This document shows positions 7,195 to 62,882 of a DNA stretch of 64,000 bases, in pieces. Numbering within the stretch: position 1 is the stretch's first letter; each line of letters begins with the position of its first letter. Position numbers and translations under genes: made by a program. Below the pieces are notes generated by a model that searched no databases, had not been told where the DNA came from, and saw nothing but the letters and a program-made list of their open reading frames with translations. Origin of the DNA: a virus (lineage: Duplodnaviria; Caudoviricetes); the IMG/VR virus record IMGVR_UViG_2531839014_000003, positions 101,424 through 165,423 of that record; one strand, given 5' to 3'.

Positions 7195-7535
7195 ATTGTA
7201 AAAAGTGCTTGTTTTTAAGGCTTTTTTGAGCCAAAAATGCGTCCGTTATATGGAGAGCAAAAGAAAATACAGTGTTGTATGAGTAAACTCCACCGCTATT
7301 GCCCGAAGCGGTTATAAATATGGGAGACAGTCTTAAAATGTATACTAGGGGCGGACGTATCATTATTCGCCCCAAATACAATTAATTTAGAACTATCGTG
7401 ACGACCAGACATCAATAAATTAATCATTGGTAGCGGTGCTGTTATAACAACGGTATCGCTATTAGTGTTGCATAAAACAAATCAATCAAAATTTAATAAG
7501 GTTACTATTAGGGGAACCGTTACTAATTAATTTAT

Positions 7536-7610
7536 TGCGGGTTGGACAAGTCAGATTAAGTCGCTGGACTCATTCTCCAGAGAACGCCAGGGCAGAGCTG
7601 GCACCTGCTA
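7536..7610 (+). tRNA. tRNA-Met(CAT)-like, atypical or degenerate
   Basis: Cloverleaf; anticodon arm CTGGA-ctCATtc-TCCAG; T-stem GCCAG/CTGGC with non-canonical loop GGCAGAG; 1:72 mismatch. Confidence 0.7.
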
Positions 7611-7846
7611 CTCTCCCATTATGGGAAATATAGAACGGAAAGAAGTGAACCAACTATTTTTCAAATCACAAGAAATGAAGCAGATATGTTAAGAGACAAA
7701 GGATATGATGAGTTTATAAAGATTTCATCTAAAACTCACAAATCCAGATGTAAACGTTATTGGCTTGTTGAAGATCGTCGTGTATTACAATGTTTGTATA
7801 GATACAGAAAAGATACAATCGTCCAGTGACGAAATAAACATGGAAG

Positions 7847-9295
7847 GTGGTCAGGGCCATCGGAAAATCAAAACTAAAATCTGATGGGATTATGTTTGTT
7901 GGAAACAATGCCGAAGATGTTACTGGCAGCATGATACTCATAAAATTTGCAAATAAGCAGATTCTACTTGAAGCTGGGTTATACCAGAAGAATGATTACC
8001 TTGAATCTTATAAGGCAAATACAGAGAAATTCAAATTCAAACCTGAAGAAATTGACTATATCTTTATTGGTCATTGTCACATCGACCACATAGGTTTGAT
8101 ACCTCGTCTTGTAAAAGAAGGTTTTTCTGGAAAAATCATAATGACATATCCCACATCAATTATCTCAAAACACCTATTGTTAAATTGTTCCTTCATTCTG
8201 TCCGACGAAGCTAGGGTGTTATCCAAACGTTATAGTAGAGATTACGCACCAATATACAGTGAGGATGATGTCTATAATACATTCAAACTTTATACGGTAT
8301 ATAATCAGTACGATACTTTGTTCCAATTGGATGATATAGTAAGCTTTCAGTGGTTAAAAAACTCTCATTGCGTTGGGGCAGCACAATTGCAACTTATATT
8401 AAATGATGGAGTTAAAAAGAAGAAAGTACTGTATACTTCTGATATCGGCGCACTGGAAACAAAAAACCATTATGTCGAGAATACGGAAATTCCAACTTAT
8501 TTTAATGACGTAATAATTATGGAATCCACGTACGGTCTGAATACAAGAATTTCAAAAAAGACTCGTGAATTTGACATAGAACATTTAAGAATAGCTATAG
8601 ATACCGTGTTAGAACGACATGGCACACTCGTGCTGCCAGCATTTAGTTTCAGCCGTTCTCAAGAACTGTTAACCACATTATTTCTTCTGTTTGGTGATGA
8701 TGAGAATTTTACAACACCAATTATCGTGGATTCAATGCTTACCTGTGATATATGCGATGATTATGGACAGGTATTACAGAATGATAATTTAGATTTATGG
8801 AATAAAGTTTACAATTGGAAAAATGTTAAATATATAAGAGAAAAATCAGATTCACAATCATGTGTATTGGATACGACTCCAAAAATCTGTATCTCATCTT
8901 CTGGTTTCTGTACGAACGGCAGAGTCCTCTCCTACTTAGATAGATATTTGCGTGATACCAATTCTATGATTTGCTTTTCCGGTTATGTCGGTGATGATGA
9001 ATCATATCTTAGTTACAGAATCAAGAATGGAAAATCCCACAAAACAATCAATATAAATAAAAAGCCTGTACCGAATAGAGCTGATTGTATTACAATGCAG
9101 TCGTTTTCATCACATGCTAATTTTAATGATCTGTTAAGATATGGAAGTAATTTGCGGACAAATCAGTTAGTTCTGGTCCATGGTTCTATTGAGTCTAAGA
9201 ATTGTCTAAAAAAACATTTGAAAGATGAAATATCAAGAAATGACAAAACATATAAGGTGACATGTTCAGAACGGGATATGATTATTCCATTATGA
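7847..9295 (+). CDS. MBL-fold beta-CASP ribonuclease
   Basis: HCHIDH, SHCVGA, MESTYG, AFSFSRSQE, SSHA, LVHG motifs. Confidence 0.9.
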   Translation: MVRAIGKSKLKSDGIMFVGNNAEDVTGSMILIKFANKQILLEAGLYQKNDYLESYKANTEKFKFKPEEIDYIFIGHCHIDHIGLIPRLVKEGFSGKIIMTYPTSIISKHLLLNCSFILSDEARVLSKRYSRDYAPIYSEDDVYNTFKLYTVYNQYDTLFQLDDIVSFQWLKNSHCVGAAQLQLILNDGVKKKKVLYTSDIGALETKNHYVENTEIPTYFNDVIIMESTYGLNTRISKKTREFDIEHLRIAIDTVLERHGTLVLPAFSFSRSQELLTTLFLLFGDDENFTTPIIVDSMLTCDICDDYGQVLQNDNLDLWNKVYNWKNVKYIREKSDSQSCVLDTTPKICISSSGFCTNGRVLSYLDRYLRDTNSMICFSGYVGDDESYLSYRIKNGKSHKTININKKPVPNRADCITMQSFSSHANFNDLLRYGSNLRTNQLVLVHGSIESKNCLKKHLKDEISRNDKTYKVTCSERDMIIPL

Positions 9296-13366: not shown

Positions 13367-14410
13367 GTGATGAAAATATCAAGATTTACAGTCTATAATA
13401 AAATTGTTACACCAGAAAAATTGACAAAGGTGAATCCAGAAAACATTCAATTGGGAGAAGATTTTTTAGAATACCTTCAATCAATTGATAGAAGCCCAGA
13501 TACAATAAAAGGATATCGAAATGATCTTAAAATATTTTGGGTATGGTGTTTAGACTTCAATGGAAATAAATACTTTCCAGAATTAACTAAGCGTGAGGTT
13601 GCTAAATTTCAAAATTATGCTCTCAATACTTGGAATTGGGGTTCTAGTAGAATGAGACGTGTAAAGTCTTGCCTTTCTTCTCTTTCAAATTACATTCAAG
13701 ACATTCTGGATGACGAAAAAGAATTCGAAAATTATAAACCCATTATTCGCAAAATTGAAAATCCAGCCAAAACTGCCCGTAGGGAGAAAACTGTATTAAC
13801 TGATGAGCAAGTGGATGGGCTTTTAGAAACTCTTGTAGAGCGTAAGGAATATGAGTGCGCATGTGCTATTGCTATAGCTGCTTATTCCGGTATGCGTCAC
13901 GGAGAATTGTTGCAGATGCGACCAGACTTTTTTAACGATAACCATTTTGTATATGATTCCATGTGGAAAACAGATAAAGTTCGTGCTAAAGGGCACGGCA
14001 AGGATGGTTTACAGCTTAATAAATTCGTCTTATATGGTGCAAAACCATATATTGATTTATGGATGAATGAACGTAAGGAGAAAGGTATTAACAGTGAATG
14101 GATGTTTGTAACAGTTACAGTAAATGGAACTAAACGTATATGGAAAAAGAGAAAAGACACAAGTTCCTGGGTAAAACAATGCACAGAAATACTTGGTGTG
14201 GATTTCTACTTACACTCGTTGCGTCATTATACATGCACAAAGTTACATAGAATGAATCTACCTGCTCATGTTATTCAAGAGTTCTTCGGATGGGCAAGTT
14301 CTGAAATGCTTCAAATCTATAATGACCTTACTGCCGAAGATGAATTTGGAAAATATTTTACCAAAGATGGTGTCAAGGAAATTAAGCAAGGTTCATTGAC
14401 TGATATCTAA
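13367..14410 (+). CDS. Tyrosine recombinase
   Basis: SGMRHGE, HSLRH, FGW, Y motifs; SAM-like N-terminus. Confidence 0.9.
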   Translation: MMKISRFTVYNKIVTPEKLTKVNPENIQLGEDFLEYLQSIDRSPDTIKGYRNDLKIFWVWCLDFNGNKYFPELTKREVAKFQNYALNTWNWGSSRMRRVKSCLSSLSNYIQDILDDEKEFENYKPIIRKIENPAKTARREKTVLTDEQVDGLLETLVERKEYECACAIAIAAYSGMRHGELLQMRPDFFNDNHFVYDSMWKTDKVRAKGHGKDGLQLNKFVLYGAKPYIDLWMNERKEKGINSEWMFVTVTVNGTKRIWKKRKDTSSWVKQCTEILGVDFYLHSLRHYTCTKLHRMNLPAHVIQEFFGWASSEMLQIYNDLTAEDEFGKYFTKDGVKEIKQGSLTDI

Positions 14411-54817: not shown

Positions 54818-55804
54818 ATGGCACAAACACAGCCAGAAGATTTTAGGATTGATATATCTCATGAACAATCATTTAGATATTTACAGGCAAAGCAATTTGA
54901 TCACAATTCAAGGATACGGCGATTGATCATTACTGATAATAATATACCACTAAAATTTACAGGAAAAGAACTGATTGGTCTTTCACTTTACATAAATGGA
55001 GACAATTATTCAAATACAACATGCCCATTTGGGGATGATGGATTTCCAAGAGTTGTATTTACGGAATCCATGTTGTCCCGTGAAGGTGATGTAAGCTGCG
55101 AGGTCAGGATTTATAGTTCATCCGATGCAACAGTTGCTACTACATTTACTTTCATGATGACAGTAAGCAAGAGTCTACTCAATCAAGATAGATTGGTTGC
55201 ATCATCCGAGTTTAACATCCTGAATGATTTGATTTTACAGGCAAATGTGATTCCAGATTTAATCAAGCAATTCAATCTTACACAGGAGCAAGTCAATACA
55301 CTAATATCACAGATTCAAGATGATATCGTTAATTATACAAACCAGTTTTCAACCATGAAAACTAAGTATACAAATGACTTCAATGCGCTTCTACAGAAAA
55401 TAAATGCCGATATTACATTATATAAATCGGAATACAATTCTTTAAAAACTGATATCACAAATCTCAAAAATTCCATAACTACTTGGTACACATCTGCTCA
55501 GGCCGCAGAGAACACCAGAATTGCCAATGAGAATAAACGGCAAACCGATACGGCTAAAGCAATCGCCAACTGCGAGAAAGCAACTGCTAACACAAATACA
55601 GCCATCTCTGGAGCTAATACAGCTCGTGATAATGCCAATGCTGCGGCTACCGAAGCACAAACTAAGGCTGCATATGCGCAGAATCAGGGCGACCGTGTTG
55701 ATATGGCGCTTAAGGATTTTGAATTCAGACTTAGAACTGTCGATGGAGGTGAACTAACCGATACCACCCCCGCTGAAAATATATATGATGGTGGAACATT
55801 GTAA
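54818..55804 (+). CDS. Baseplate upper protein (BppU-like)
   Basis: AKQFD..SR N-domain, SSEF, Ala-rich coiled coil. Confidence 0.75.
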   Translation: MAQTQPEDFRIDISHEQSFRYLQAKQFDHNSRIRRLIITDNNIPLKFTGKELIGLSLYINGDNYSNTTCPFGDDGFPRVVFTESMLSREGDVSCEVRIYSSSDATVATTFTFMMTVSKSLLNQDRLVASSEFNILNDLILQANVIPDLIKQFNLTQEQVNTLISQIQDDIVNYTNQFSTMKTKYTNDFNALLQKINADITLYKSEYNSLKTDITNLKNSITTWYTSAQAAENTRIANENKRQTDTAKAIANCEKATANTNTAISGANTARDNANAAATEAQTKAAYAQNQGDRVDMALKDFEFRLRTVDGGELTDTTPAENIYDGGTL

Positions 55805-55825: not shown

Positions 55826-56572
55826 ATGGATACAATAAAATTAAAACGAGCAACTAAATCTGTTGCTAATGCGTCAACCAAAGTACTTGAAAAAGATGAA
55901 GTATTAGTAATAACACCAAATTCTGGAAGCGGAAAGGGAAAATGCCAATTAAAGTTTGGTGATGGTGTCACTGCTACCAAAAGCCTCCCCATTGCCATTG
56001 ATGGTGAAAATGCTGATGAGATGAAGGTGTCTACCATCCCTACCGTATCAGATGAAAACCCGGTTTTATCCGCTGGTGAAACCGTTAAAGTATTCATCGG
56101 GAAGATTAAAAAGAAGTTTACATATCTTGAAAACTTGCTTGGTAATGTAAAAACCGTGACCAATTTATTTGGTAGTAACGATGCAAAGACAGTTGCACAG
56201 GGTCTACAGAACTTGGTAAACACCAAATTTAATAAATCGGATCTCTATGATGGAACAGATTCGACCAGTACATCTCTTGGAGCTACGGCTAATGCTCTCA
56301 GAAAAGTCAACGAAAAGACAGACAATAATACTTCAAGCATTTCTACACTAAATAGCAATTTAGCAAAAAACAATGCAAAGGTGACTTTAAACGGCGTCAA
56401 GAACATTAATGGGTTTACAGCCGTATATTCCGACCGGACCGACCGGGCATTCCAGTTACAATATGATTCTGGCGAGATTGCATCAATCGCATTTAACAAC
56501 ACCGGTATCTGGTATGATTTTTATGACGGTCAAAACTGGAAACAGGTTTGGAAGTTTAATAAGCCATCATAA
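55826..56572 (+). CDS. Tail fibre / receptor-binding protein with switchable C-terminus (cassette A expressed)
   Basis: LKFGDGV N-domain; crossover site encodes LNSNL at 56348-56362. Confidence 0.8.
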   Translation: MDTIKLKRATKSVANASTKVLEKDEVLVITPNSGSGKGKCQLKFGDGVTATKSLPIAIDGENADEMKVSTIPTVSDENPVLSAGETVKVFIGKIKKKFTYLENLLGNVKTVTNLFGSNDAKTVAQGLQNLVNTKFNKSDLYDGTDSTSTSLGATANALRKVNEKTDNNTSSISTLNSNLAKNNAKVTLNGVKNINGFTAVYSDRTDRAFQLQYDSGEIASIAFNNTGIWYDFYDGQNWKQVWKFNKPS

Positions 56573-56890
56573 TCATTTAAATGTTTTAGCGTATAAAACA
56601 AGTGCGCTGATTTGTCCGGAAGTATTGATAATATTAGATGCGGTATCATTACGTACGTATACATTGGTAGTATAATTTGTTGTATCGGTATTGCATTGAT
56701 ACACCGTCAACCCATCTTTTACGCTAAAACCAACAATCCCAATAGGTACAAATCCGGCAATCCGGGCGGTGGGAAATTGCGCAGTTACGGTTGACCCGGG
56801 ACCTACGGTAATTTCATTAGAATTACTCGTCCATTGTGTTTTAAGAACGCTATTTAGGGCAGTTTCAAGATTATCAAAATTGCTATTTAG
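56573..56890 (-). other. Silent fibre cassette B
   Basis: Open frame LNSNFDNLETALNSVLKTQW...LVLYAKTFK*. Confidence 0.85.
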
Positions 56891-57003
56891 TATAAAAGCA
56901 AACTAAATATCGCAATATAGTTTTCTGTCAATATCCTAATAATTTGTATTTTATGACATATCTTTCATAATATATAGATTTCTTATCTTTTCTATCATCT
57001 CCC

Positions 57004-57035
57004 TTGCCAAAGAACGTATGTTCTGTTATTATAAT
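57004..57035 (+). promoter_or_regulatory. Recombinase promoter with LexA (SOS) box
   Basis: TTGCCA, GAACGTATGTTC at 57012-57023, TATTATAAT. Confidence 0.75.
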
Positions 57036-57174
57036 AGAGTAACAGAAAAGAGAGTAAATCACCGCCCTCGCAAAGCATAGATCTACTCTCTCACTACAAC
57101 GCAAAAGCGCTGTCTTTGATTATTATACTAGACAGCCTCCTTTTGTGCAACAAAAATTAGGAGGATGGAATTAT

Positions 57175-58170
57175 ATGGAAGAATTTAAGAATGAGGTAAT
57201 GATGCAGTTACAAAATAATGAAGTGTTTAATAGTGAGATGTTACTGATGATAGACCAGGCGATAAGTTATGTAATGCGTAGCTATCAGATACAACGAATG
57301 TGTACTGAAGTTGCTATACAAACGGTTAAGCGGTGTCCTGAATTAGACGCTTTTATATTAAGAAAAGAATTTCGCGGATTATCTGAAGATACAATACGCC
57401 AATATCGATATTTACTAAATGCATTTGTGGCCTGGTTAGATAAAGATGTTAAATATGTAGTATCTGATGATATACGGACGTTCCTAAACGAATATGCAAA
57501 AATAAATAACATTTCAGACCGTACCAAAGATTCGAAACGTCTTATAATCTGTAGTTTCTATCAATTTCTACATCAAAATGGATATATCAAAGAAAATCCC
57601 GCTGCTGCTGTTGAACCAATTAAATATAAACAAAAAGTTCGAGAGCCATTATCACATATGGAAGTAGAACTAATGCGTAGAGCATGTAAGACAGACTTTG
57701 ATGAAGCTCTATTTGAAACCTTTTATTCCACTGGCTGTCGAGTTAGTGAAGTCGCAAATATGAAAATAGATGATATTGACTTCGATAAGGAACAAATCAA
57801 AGTATGTGGAAAGGGCGATAAAGAACGATTTGTTCTACTTACACCACGAGCGCATTTAAGTTTAAAGTTATATCTTGACAAAAGGCATGATAATAATCCT
57901 GGTGTATTTATAAGTGAAAATAAAAGTCATAAACCATTAGGAAAGTGCTCACTTGAAAATCGAATAAAAGAACTTGGCAAACGTGCTGGAATAGGAAGAC
58001 CTGTAACACCTCATATAATTAGACATACTACAGCAAGTCATCTATTAGAGCATACAGATATTGATGTTGTTCAAGATTTATTAGGACATACAAAAATCGA
58101 AACGACAAGAATTTATGCAAAGACATCTTCTGAAAGAATCAAATCTGGATTCAGAAAAGCATCTTTATAA
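57175..58170 (+). CDS. Tyrosine recombinase (shufflon invertase)
   Basis: TGCRVSE, GKGDKER, HIIRH, LLGH, Y. Confidence 0.92.
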   Translation: MEEFKNEVMMQLQNNEVFNSEMLLMIDQAISYVMRSYQIQRMCTEVAIQTVKRCPELDAFILRKEFRGLSEDTIRQYRYLLNAFVAWLDKDVKYVVSDDIRTFLNEYAKINNISDRTKDSKRLIICSFYQFLHQNGYIKENPAAAVEPIKYKQKVREPLSHMEVELMRRACKTDFDEALFETFYSTGCRVSEVANMKIDDIDFDKEQIKVCGKGDKERFVLLTPRAHLSLKLYLDKRHDNNPGVFISENKSHKPLGKCSLENRIKELGKRAGIGRPVTPHIIRHTTASHLLEHTDIDVVQDLLGHTKIETTRIYAKTSSERIKSGFRKASL

Positions 58171-58294
58171 AAATTCCAAAAACAATTAAATAAAATAACA
58201 TACAGTAATATCTAAGATAATGTATAAAATAAGAATATTTATAACATTTATAACATCGGTAGATTTATTTATGTCGCAAATTTTTATTAGATGT

Positions 58295-58573
58295 AGCAAT
58301 TTAAACGATGGAAAATACTGGCGTGCATATACAACCACTTTTGCATTTGGTCGAGAAATACCAGTTGATAAAGACATAATATTTGATTTAAATATTAGTT
58401 TTCCGGCACGTCCATCTGTACTTGTCATTATTCCCTCTACTGCCAAAATAACAAACGTAAGGTATGATTTTGACAATTCGACCTCGACCAAGACAAGAAT
58501 CATCTTTGACAACGAGGGAGCGACAATACCCGCAGATGCTATGGTACGTATGGGCGTTATCGCTATCGAATGA
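58295..58573 (+). other. Silent fibre cassette C
   Basis: SNLNDGKYW...GVIAIE*. Confidence 0.82.
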
Positions 58574-58885
58574 TTATTTGGTAAAATAAATCATCTCAAA
58601 GTAAAATATGCTGTTACCTATGGCCCCTGAATCAATGGTTATATTGCCGGTATTGGCAATAACCTTAAACACTCCATATCCTGTGGTGCCATAAATTAAG
58701 CATACTTTTTCTTGTGCGGCCACCGGAAGTCCACTAATCAGTAGTGTATTGTTAATTGTTGTATTTTGCTTTAATGTAACAAGTGCATTTACTACACATT
58801 GTTTTCCGATTTTATAATAATTGGCTGATCCGATAGCCCAATCCGCATTTATGGTAGCTGCCCCTGATTCCAGTTCTAAATTGCT
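58574..58885 (-). other. Silent fibre cassette D
   Basis: SNLELESGAATINADW...YYKIGK...ISGLP...YFTK*. Confidence 0.85.
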
Positions 58886-58976
58886 ACATTTCTATAAATC
58901 TATATCTACATAAATATTCATTAAATTATACATTCTTAACTTTAGAAACTAACTAATTTGAAAGAAAGGAAATAAA

Positions 58977-59798
58977 ATGTACAATATTACTTTTAATAAC
59001 AATCGTGTTTTAAAAATTTATGATAGCCAGGAAAATAAATCTACCCAAACACTTATTATACGAATTAATCCATCTGATTATTTATTTTCTGATATCAATA
59101 ATCTTTTTGATAATCTTACCAAAAACGATCTAAAAAGAATCATTAAAACAACTCCATCCGCATCGTATATCACAACCTATGAGAACTATACAGATATTGT
59201 AAGTCGTTCAATAGATAAGGTGACAATTTTAGTAGAAAAAGCAGAAGAAATTCCATCATTCGACGAGGATGGACAGGATATAACAGCTTCTATTGTGACT
59301 AACGAGCCACAGGAAATAGAACTTATCGTTGTTGTCCTTAAATATGAAGACCCCACAAAAGTTATTGTAGAGCAGCTTAATCAGCAGATTAATCCTACTA
59401 TTGATGTAGAAACATGTTCTTTGGATGATTTGAAAATGTTTGTTCAAAAAAAGAATAGTGATTCTCTTGAAATTTTTCTTGAGAATAATCCACTGCTTTA
59501 TACTGATGGGAAGTATTATGGAGTATCAAAAGTCGATAGAGATGAAATGTCACAGCAGTATCTAGCTTATCAGCTTAATAAGACAATTAACCCAAATGCT
59601 GAAGATATTGTCAAGTGGCATAGTAAAGGTACTAAGTGTACTCCAATGTCTGTTTCTGATTTTTCTACACTTGCTCTTGCTGTGTATGCCTACACAGAAC
59701 CATACTATGAAGAGATGCAAACAATTAAAGAATCAATCATGTCTGCATCAACAAAAGATGAGGTTTTGTCTATTAAAATCTTCAATAAAGTACTATGA
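58977..59798 (+). CDS. Tail-fibre-associated protein (DUF4376-like C-terminus)
   Basis: AAAGGA SD; C-terminal I..A.T.DEV..I. Confidence 0.6.
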   Translation: MYNITFNNNRVLKIYDSQENKSTQTLIIRINPSDYLFSDINNLFDNLTKNDLKRIIKTTPSASYITTYENYTDIVSRSIDKVTILVEKAEEIPSFDEDGQDITASIVTNEPQEIELIVVVLKYEDPTKVIVEQLNQQINPTIDVETCSLDDLKMFVQKKNSDSLEIFLENNPLLYTDGKYYGVSKVDRDEMSQQYLAYQLNKTINPNAEDIVKWHSKGTKCTPMSVSDFSTLALAVYAYTEPYYEEMQTIKESIMSASTKDEVLSIKIFNKVL

Positions 59799-59855
59799 TT
59801 TAGTGAATAAGTATGGAGCTTCATTGTGTATTTATGAAGCTCCACATTGAAATGT

Positions 59856-60131
59856 AGCAATTTAGGTGTACAAATCAGAAAAATATCATCAAAGCTTTTT
59901 TCATGTGATACTACCGTTGGTACGAAGGATAGTGTTAGCCAAACTTACACCATTTCGGATTTGGGGTTTATAAAAACACCTTTATGGGCCGTACAGGCGT
60001 CAAATTGGTTAAATGCTCAGATAACCAATATAACAAAAGATTCTATATCCATAACCTTCTATAATCCGTCAGAGCGTGGAATTGCTGGGACTGCCGCATG
60101 GATAAAGCTCATATTTTTCGAGCTCAAATAA
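59856..60131 (+). other. Silent fibre cassette E
   Basis: SNLGVQIRK...LIFFELK*. Confidence 0.82.
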
Positions 60132-60386
60132 TCATTTTGCTGATGCTATCCAATGTACTAACACACTTTGCTCCGAGGTTTCTTTTATTGTTTCAAGATA
60201 TAAAGAAAATCCCAACTTAGTAACTTTGCTAATTGTAGCCTGAAAAACACTTGGATACTCATTATATATTGCTACCGATATAGATGGCATTTTACTAAAA
60301 CTTGTATCAAAAATAATATTTGATGTTCTGATGGCTCCAGCTTGTCCTGACACTAAGACAGTTGTAGTTCCAACTTTTAAATTGCT
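60132..60386 (-). other. Silent fibre cassette F (H-type lectin/gp53-like)
   Basis: SNLKVGTTTV...FDTSFSKMP...VHWIASAK*. Confidence 0.82.
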
Positions 60387-60519
60387 ACATTTCTAATGAA
60401 AGACTCCTTTCATCGGATTTTTTGTCCGTCCATCGCGTATTATTTCGCATTTTTCTATATATTATGTCTTTATATCACGTACATTTGTTACATTATTAAC
60501 ATAAACAGAGGAGGATAAA

Positions 60520-62213: not shown

Positions 62214-62882
62214 ATGAAATTTAATTTTGTATCTTTTGAAAATGCTAAGGAATTGGTATTACAAATAAAAGCTTTAATTATTTCGCATACAAGCAATTCT
62301 ACAATACACACATCTCAAACTGAAAAAACGAAGTGGAATACTATCACAAATAAAGTAGATAAAGTAACAGGCAAGGGATTATCAACTAACGATTACACTA
62401 CGACTGAAAAAAATAAATTAGCCGGAATTTCACCAGGAGCAGAGGTTAATGTGCAGTCAGATTGGAGTGTGACGGATACAGAATCAGATTCCTATATTAA
62501 GAACAAACCAACTTCTATGCCAGCTTCAGATGTTCCGGCGTGGGCAAAAGCTTCTAGCAAACCATCGTATGTATGGAGTGAAATTGGAAGTAAACCGTCC
62601 ACATTTCCTCCTTCGAGCCACACACACAATTACGCTGGTTCTTCATCCGTAGGAGGAGCAGCTACTTCTGCTACAAAATTATCTACAGCAAGAAAAATTG
62701 GAGATGCAAACTTTGATGGTACGGCTAATATCACATTATCACAGATTGGTGCAGCCACATCTGAACAAGTCAGTCAATTGCAAGAAACTGTAAATCATAT
62801 AATAGCTTCACATGCCATTGATGGAGGCGATTTGATGAATACTGAACCAGCGGAAAATGTTTATGATGGTGGTAGCCTATAA
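62214..62882 (+). CDS. Fibre/appendage protein
   Basis: KVDKVTGKGLSTNDY, NVQSDW, FPPSSHTH, FDGTANI. Confidence 0.7.
   Translation: MKFNFVSFENAKELVLQIKALIISHTSNSTIHTSQTEKTKWNTITNKVDKVTGKGLSTNDYTTTEKNKLAGISPGAEVNVQSDWSVTDTESDSYIKNKPTSMPASDVPAWAKASSKPSYVWSEIGSKPSTFPPSSHTHNYAGSSSVGGAATSATKLSTARKIGDANFDGTANITLSQIGAATSEQVSQLQETVNHIIASHAIDGGDLMNTEPAENVYDGGSL

Follow-up and report, generated by a model that had tools for sequence, protein, structure and literature searches.

A very likely multiple-inversion shufflon at the receptor-binding protein gene of a siphovirus-type prophage

Here, we analyzed 64,000 nt of the IMG/VR virus record IMGVR_UViG_2531839014_000003 (the window; the whole record is a provirus of 165 kb) and found what is very likely a multiple-inversion shufflon acting on the receptor-binding protein (RBP) gene of a siphovirus-type prophage from a Clostridia-type bacterium of the human gut; named relatives point to a host in Enterocloster (Lachnospiraceae). 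A 9-bp core, TAGCAATTT, occurs exactly six times in the window, all at 56353 to 60387 and on alternating strands (+ - + - + -), where ~1.7 copies scattered over the 64 kb would be expected by chance. This is the layout of a shufflon, in which several segments are bounded by a short alternating repeat: the six cores bound five segments, namely S1 (cassettes A|B), S2 (recombinase), S3 (C|D), S4 (a passenger open reading frame, ORF273), and S5 (E|F). Also as in a shufflon, a constant 5' part is followed by alternative in-frame 3' ends, one opened by each repeat (6/6 cassettes), and a tyrosine recombinase is encoded at the locus.

Alternating sites and their cassettes

The rest of the 165-kb record contains one further TAGCAATTT copy only, which sits within an unrelated minus-strand replication-type open reading frame (ORF), looks like chance, and was rejected as a seventh site. 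One-mismatch variants of the core were not enriched in the window (39 found versus 43.6 expected). The left flanks are ACTAAA at sites A and B, TTAGATG at C, and GAAATG at D, E, and F. A site logo drawn from 36 left and 54 right flanks, all distinct, gives the conserved stretch A-W-R-TAGCAATTT-A-G plus a T at -9, a very short site that lacks symmetry. With codons set as T|AGC|AAT|TTx, each core leads into an open in-frame S-N-L/F cassette that ends at a stop codon (6/6), and the core codes for (N)-S-N-L/F at the joint. By our estimate, a single open frame of cassette length would arise by chance with a probability of ~0.5% (~7% stops per codon at 35% G+C). The six cassette peptides form six different BLAST clusters, and neighbors are paired stop to stop (TAA|TCA at 56570-56575, TGA|TTA at 58571-58576, and TAA|TCA at 60129-60134). 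The program-made ORF list truncates or mis-starts cassettes B to F. The original prediction, made from the window and this list, had described a tail-fibre shufflon with six sites in alternating orientation, distinct flank classes, in-frame cassettes of ~70 to 105 amino acids (aa) that were paired tail to tail with abutting stops and mishandled by the ORF track, and a recombinase and a second gene (ORF273) in invertible spans. This architecture was recovered here, with six exact cores, six open frames of 72 to 103 aa, exact abutment at all three pairs, and both genes lying between a minus and a plus site.

Public proteins carry silent cassettes of the window behind the same constant part. With the 248-aa expressed protein as query, 569 matches were obtained, and fusions were counted among the best 120 of these 569. 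In 99 of the 120, the constant part is present and the sequence switches precisely at residue 176, and the tips among the matches listed belong to ~49 unrelated families. The C-termini of P0030 and P0052 match cassette B at 100% identity, and that of P0029 matches cassette E at 100%, each fused to the constant part; cassette F is 98.8% identical to the likewise fused C-terminus of P0051, whose source name is H-type lectin or phage tail fibre protein (Enterocloster clostridioformis). D-like cassettes behind the constant part are 79 to 83% identical to D (82% in the fusion cited). As far as protein sequences go, these fusions show that cassettes B, E, and F and a D-like one are used in the expressed position elsewhere.

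The genes leading up to the locus are a 938-aa Prophage_tail (Tal-like) gene, a 140-aa ORF (ORF140), and a gene with a BppU_N match (6.5e-7), followed by the expressed RBP gene. In lactococcal-type siphovirus baseplates, the position after Tal-like and BppU-like genes is that of the receptor-binding protein. Judged by gene position, the target is therefore better called a baseplate RBP than a tail fibre. The expressed ORF has a weak Phage_fiber_2 match at aa 139 to 168. In an AlphaFold model of the cassette-A protein (mean predicted local distance difference test [pLDDT] score of 50, poor over residues 1 to 114), a long helix at residues 152 to 181 spans the joint at 177 to 179, and the modelled head domain starts just past this joint; a compact five-strand beta domain (aa 190 to 248, pLDDT 71 to 88) is the only usable part of the model. 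A fold search with the model gave Z scores of 5.9 or less, generic small beta sheets being tied with a few phage RBP heads. The six tips, unrelated in sequence, are probably carbohydrate binding and presumably set host range. The BppU_N-like protein (54818-55804) and a downstream fibre-like protein (62214-62882) share the C-terminal motif PAEN(I/V)YDGG(T/S)L.

Rearranged segments in related phages

Four IMG/VR relatives (L001 to L004) carry a recombinase 95% identical to that of the window and 14 cores each, with the left flanks in fixed order and the right flanks (cassettes) permuted. The sole difference between L001 and L003 is a 100%-identical 685-bp core-to-core segment that has moved from slot 13 to slot 1 and is inverted. 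In L002, the slot-9 and slot-1 segments lie inverted in slots 1 and 3, and the slot-7 segment lies in slot 9. Throughout, base -1 is a property of the slot, whereas base +1 moves along with the cassette; therefore, exchange takes place within the 9-mer core. Sixteen further metagenome loci contain many 99 to 100%-identical segments in different slots and orientations, always of the same slot parity, as inversion predicts, and the flanks of these moved segments match no better than chance. The recombinase lies between two sites in every recombinase-bearing relative. In addition, 16 of 35 related contigs stop 54 to 290 nt past a core, the pattern that branching of the assembly graph at the cores would leave. 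Together with the silent cassettes fused to the constant part in public proteins, these permuted and inverted identical segments support the originally proposed shufflon. The accompanying proposal that switching is biased by flank class found no support, since the ACTAAA-flanked slot 1 has exchanged cassettes with AATG-flanked slots 4, 10, and 14 in relatives; relative rates are not judgeable from sequence.

Two apparent cases of switching were discarded. L077 and L079 differ in the orientation of the whole locus, with flanks swapped too, and L017 and L018, which come from one metagenome and had been considered as two states of one phage, are different strains. The exact junction 26-mer was absent from the viral contig collection searched, and no relatives of the constant part were found in the genome contig collection or in the annotated phage records searched.

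In the mechanism that we propose, the Xer-like tyrosine recombinase would exchange strands in the core between any plus and any minus site. Each inversion would flip one, three, or five segments, such that left flanks stay and cassettes move, and one inversion would join B, D, or F to the constant part and two would join C or E. A breadth-first search of arrangements gave these same path lengths and reached 384 arrangements and all six cassettes. The 384 arrangements would yield six proteins, and one prophage could give virions with different adsorption specificities.

Several points weigh against this proposal. The window was assembled straight through in one state, and current inversion of its copy is what we infer. 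Cassette C behind the window's constant part was not found among the matches listed, and directly oriented sites (A, C, and E) could also give deletions. Strain differences mix shuffling with cassette replacement: L023, the nearest relative, is 99.9% identical in the DNA of S2 and S4 yet has a mostly different and larger cassette set, so cassette replacement is fast as well. Receptor binding is suggested by gene context and the lectin match of cassette F, the model being unreliable over its N-terminal 114 residues and its fold matches generic. A single assembled state is also what would be seen if the lineage once shuffled and the window copy were now static, a frozen relic whose recombinase is silent or crippled and which makes the cassette-A protein only. 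Such a relic would fit with the cassette-A form outnumbering every other form by a wide margin in public data (27 of the 99 constant-part proteins among the matches listed; the exact protein on 72 contigs), with a leader that can sequester the ribosome-binding site (RBS) of the recombinase and a LexA-like box overlapping its promoter, and with the existence of recombinase-less derivatives (L021, L022, and L024). However, the recombinase is full length, has all catalytic motifs, and is 99.9% identical in DNA to that of L023; all six cores are perfect and all six cassettes open; and the silent cassettes are 98.8 to 100% identical to expressed copies elsewhere, which argues against decay. We consider a static copy unlikely.

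Cassettes might also be swapped between phages by homologous or illegitimate recombination, with the repeat kept for the S-N-L neck and the recombinase serving integration or dimer resolution. The core is coding in every cassette, as this would have it, but the exact 9-mer is kept at silent sites despite a non-coding upstream flank, and ordinary homologous recombination needs much more than 9 bp. Swapping of this kind would also suit the different cassette sets of close relatives, the re-pairing of partners at the tail-to-tail joint (beyond the reach of head-site inversion), and the many same-core loci without a nearby recombinase. Nevertheless, strict alternation and the same-parity inverted moves of whole 100%-identical segments obey the rules of inversion, the recombinase keeps its place between two sites wherever a relative has one, and two other tyrosine recombinases in the record are available for integration. 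We give exchange without site-specific inversion very little credence. That the arrangements in relatives are assembly chimeras at a repeat seems to us next to impossible: relatives are mostly known from metagenome assemblies, and many contigs end at cores, but the shared core and conserved neighbors span 9 to 16 bp, which is below assembler k-mers and too short to lead path finding astray; independent samples and isolate-derived records obey one and the same junction rule; and the fusion proteins with different cassettes are each found on many contigs. We therefore retain the multiple-inversion shufflon, the features of which are listed in Table 1.

Table 1. Features of the candidate shufflon (window positions unless noted)
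Feature	Position	Strand	Remarks
Constant 5' part of RBP gene	55826-56352	+	aa 1-176, ends ...SSISTLN; ORF 55826-56572 has RBS
Site A core	56353-56361	+	TAGCAATTT at expressed junction; crossover confined to 9-mer by comparing relatives
Cassette A	56354-56572	+	72 aa plus stop; currently expressed
Cassette B	56573-56884	-	103 aa plus stop; silent
Site B core	56877-56885	-	exact TAGCAATTT
S2 spacer segment	56886-58293		recombinase gene inside, between minus site and plus site
Recombinase promoter-like site and leader	57004-57174	+	TTGCCA-17-TATTAT overlapped by AGAAC-N4-GTTCT
Xer-like tyrosine recombinase	57175-58170	+	331 aa; PF00589 6e-35, SAM-like N-domains
Site C core	58294-58302	+	exact TAGCAATTT
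Cassette C	58295-58573	+	92 aa plus stop; silent
Cassette D	58574-58885	-	103 aa plus stop; silent
Site D core	58878-58886	-	exact TAGCAATTT
S4 spacer segment	58887-59854		ORF273 inside, between minus site and plus site
Passenger gene ORF273	58977-59798	+	273 aa; weak DUF4376 match; look-alikes in phages only
Site E core	59855-59863	+	exact TAGCAATTT
Cassette E	59856-60131	+	91 aa plus stop; silent
Cassette F	60132-60386	-	84 aa plus stop; silent; H-type lectin domain PF09458 4.7e-7
Site F core	60379-60387	-	exact TAGCAATTT; last site, fixed downstream tail genes then follow
L021 recombinase-less four-site locus	7196-8467 (in L021)		spacer holds small unrelated gene, ~105 aa

The recombinase and the closest loci

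The nearest NCBIfam families of the recombinase are XerA, XerC, and XerD (best XerA-type match, 1e-66), with no Rci-named model among its NCBIfam matches. It aligns end to end with PDB 4a8e, a Pyrococcus XerA-like structure (7e-32), and the R, K, HxxR, H, and Y motifs all line up; from its full-length ORF and these motifs, the enzyme is predicted to be intact. Its closest annotated-phage match has 36% identity. Because the record has two other tyrosine-recombinase genes, at window positions 13793-14335 and at G000:81048-81590 (G000 is the whole record), the locus recombinase need not be the integrase. These two genes are candidates for the prophage integrase. In two cultured Clostridia phages, Clostridium phage phiCp-D (L036, 21639-22616) and Terrisporobacter phage TPELB_ph1 (L037, 17645-18640), an Xer-like "integrase" with 29 to 34% identity to the window recombinase has the last tail gene on one side and the holin gene on the other; in TPELB_ph1, another gene is annotated as a second integrase. 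At the distant recombinase-bearing loci of phiCp-D, TPELB_ph1, and MT836842, neither an inverted-repeat scan nor a k-mer scan, both quick ones, found alternating repeats, and we do not count these loci as shufflons. A diversity-generating retroelement acting on the RBP was rejected: the variation is whole-cassette exchange, and no reverse transcriptase adjoins the locus, the only RVT_1 gene of the record (G000:59238-59834, minus strand, 1.9e-16) lying outside the window and ~97 kb away.

The palindrome overlapping the recombinase promoter-like site is of the LexA (Cheo-box) type, with arms invariant in 10 relatives and a variable N4 (GTAT, ATGT, or ATGC). The ~140-nt leader is much better conserved than the DNA 5' of the promoter, and in its predicted fold CCUCCU pairs with the AGGAGG RBS (z -2.2); an Rfam search of the leader gave no match. 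These features suggest that recombinase expression would be low and linked to the SOS response.

The window-type loci of L021, L022, and L024 have four perfect cores and no recombinase, and the ORF273 homologue of L024 is an ordinary tail-module gene that the sites do not enclose. The block 3' of site F is 99.9% identical to that of L021 and L022. L021 to L023 contain a "null" cassette, TAGCAATTTCTAA, which reads S-N-F-stop and in the expressed slot would give a headless protein. Exactly abutting stops were found in 10 of 31 distinct cassette pairs, and cassette families have different partners in different phages (four for the A family). Because head-site inversion cannot re-pair cassettes, a second recombination point at the tails is implied. 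The window's tail-to-tail joints (56566-56579, 58567-58580, and 60125-60138), although of unrelated pairs, share AAATAATCATTT or its complement, as do joints in L014, L015, L020, L023, and L030.

Known shufflons and a shared pool of cassettes

Several known systems resemble the locus in part. In the pilV shufflon of R64/IncI plasmids, the tyrosine recombinase Rci carries out multiple inversion at short sites with one conserved side, and a constant N-terminus receives alternative adhesin C-termini that set partner specificity. That system is plasmid borne and acts on a conjugative-pilus tip adhesin, and Rci is encoded outside the segments, whereas the window recombinase is closest to the Xer type. 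Gin, Cin, Pin, and Min of Mu, P1, e14, and p15B switch the C-terminus of a tail fibre by inversion, Min by multiple inversion at six sites. These are serine invertases that use an enhancer; in contrast, the 165-kb record gave no match to the serine recombinase family PF00239, for which control genomes matched. Phase-variable type I restriction hsdS shufflons have a tyrosine recombinase gene among inverted half-gene cassettes and short in-frame repeats, but their target is a DNA-specificity subunit and their repeats are usually longer, while the target in the window is a phage structural gene.

Closest in kind are two shufflons of phages. Rin, described in Bifidobacterium prophages (Mavrich et al. 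2018), is a shufflon with 11-bp rix sites, five cassettes, and a phage tyrosine recombinase (PMC6109161), and it has been reported in Eggerthella lenta prophages as well (PMC8778435). As in the window locus, the phage itself encodes the tyrosine recombinase, a constant RBP N-terminus is combined with several dissimilar C-terminal cassettes, each cassette is preceded by a short, asymmetric crossover repeat, and variants are seen from one prophage to another. However, the Rin site is TTCCCTAACCC rather than TAGCAATTT and does not occur in the window even when one mismatch is allowed; the Rin recombinase lies at the locus edge beside five cassettes, whereas the window has six (14 in relatives) and holds its recombinase and a passenger gene in invertible spacers; and its hosts are Actinomycetota rather than Bacillota. 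The shufflon of BV01-like phages of Phocaeicola vulgatus has three invertible units that give six isoforms of a carbohydrate-binding tail fibre, with an adjacent recombinase and all configurations seen in reads (2026 preprint; PMC13596623). Its 10-bp motif, TGGGAGAACT, is absent from the window, its locus is a compact 1.7-kb array flanked by the recombinase, its isoforms differ by alternative stop positions, and its host belongs to Bacteroidota. Across bacteria, tail-fibre genes show a statistical enrichment of programmed inversions (PMC9881135). An incomplete literature search found no paper joining shufflon with Enterocloster, Lachnospiraceae, or Clostridium bolteae. The kind of system is already known from the Rin and BV01-like cases, and the window is a further case, in an Enterocloster-type prophage.

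The most interesting lead is a family-wide network of cassettes. At 85 to 95% identity, cassette C recurs at the C-termini of P0121-P0131, whose N-terminal parts represent six other scaffolds (one collagen-like) and always join it at (N/D)|S-N-L. The DNA of those lineages has TAGCAATTT at the joint, usually with a single inverted partner 300 to 900 bp downstream, that is, a two-cassette switch. Such switches with the same core (L042-L083) are present on at least seven further fibre scaffolds, and within 9 kb of them no recombinase like that of the window was found; several of these contigs end 45 to 160 nt after the core, and in L045 the genes downstream of the switch are lysis, regulatory, and replication genes. 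Ten records were searched whole for the recombinase: two gave no homologue at E <= 1e-5, three had homologues only 29 to 33% identical to the window recombinase, and the other five had at least one PF00589 gene each, 10 to 20 kb from the fibre gene where the distance was worked out. Core-to-core segments sit in different scaffolds at 98 to 99.6% identity, in either orientation and with unrelated flanks, and 98 to 100%-identical ones sit in unrelated backbones. For example, the window's C|D segment is 98.3% identical to L056:9015-9607 (IMGVR_UViG_2654588144_000016), both cores included. The L056 segment lies between terminase-like and portal genes of an unrelated phage; its D cassette has its own ATG (MRFKKKRS-SNLELE...), and its C cassette is preceded by an in-frame stop. 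One isolate-derived record set contains both a 14-site recombinase-bearing prophage and a second prophage with the core in a fibre gene. Four Lachnospiraceae-type genomes reached via the cassette-C scaffolds had no close recombinase homologue, and three of the four lacked the core, so they are uninformative on co-occurrence.

We tentatively suggest, as a possibility that we would not favor at present, that the TAGCAATTT (S-N-L) joint is a universal adaptor for a community-shared pool of RBP tips, with recombinase-bearing prophages acting in trans on recombinase-less switches, cassettes exchanged between genomes at paired inverted cores, and units gained or lost at direct cores (6 versus 14 sites), perhaps in a burst set off via the conserved LexA-type operator. 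Trans action and recombinase-mediated cassette exchange, both hypotheses, would account for the cassette network.

Temperate phages that infect gut Clostridia are difficult to grow, and their host-range determinants are little known. The locus offers a testable mechanism in which one prophage has six RBP tips (14 in relatives) flipped by its own recombinase. The core and S-N-L joint provide a search handle for such switches, and their recognition avoids the annotation of silent cassettes as small ORFs. If tips are indeed traded between unrelated phages via one 9-bp joint, this would explain rapid host-range turnover in the gut, and the same trade would explain why phage contigs frequently break at fibre genes.

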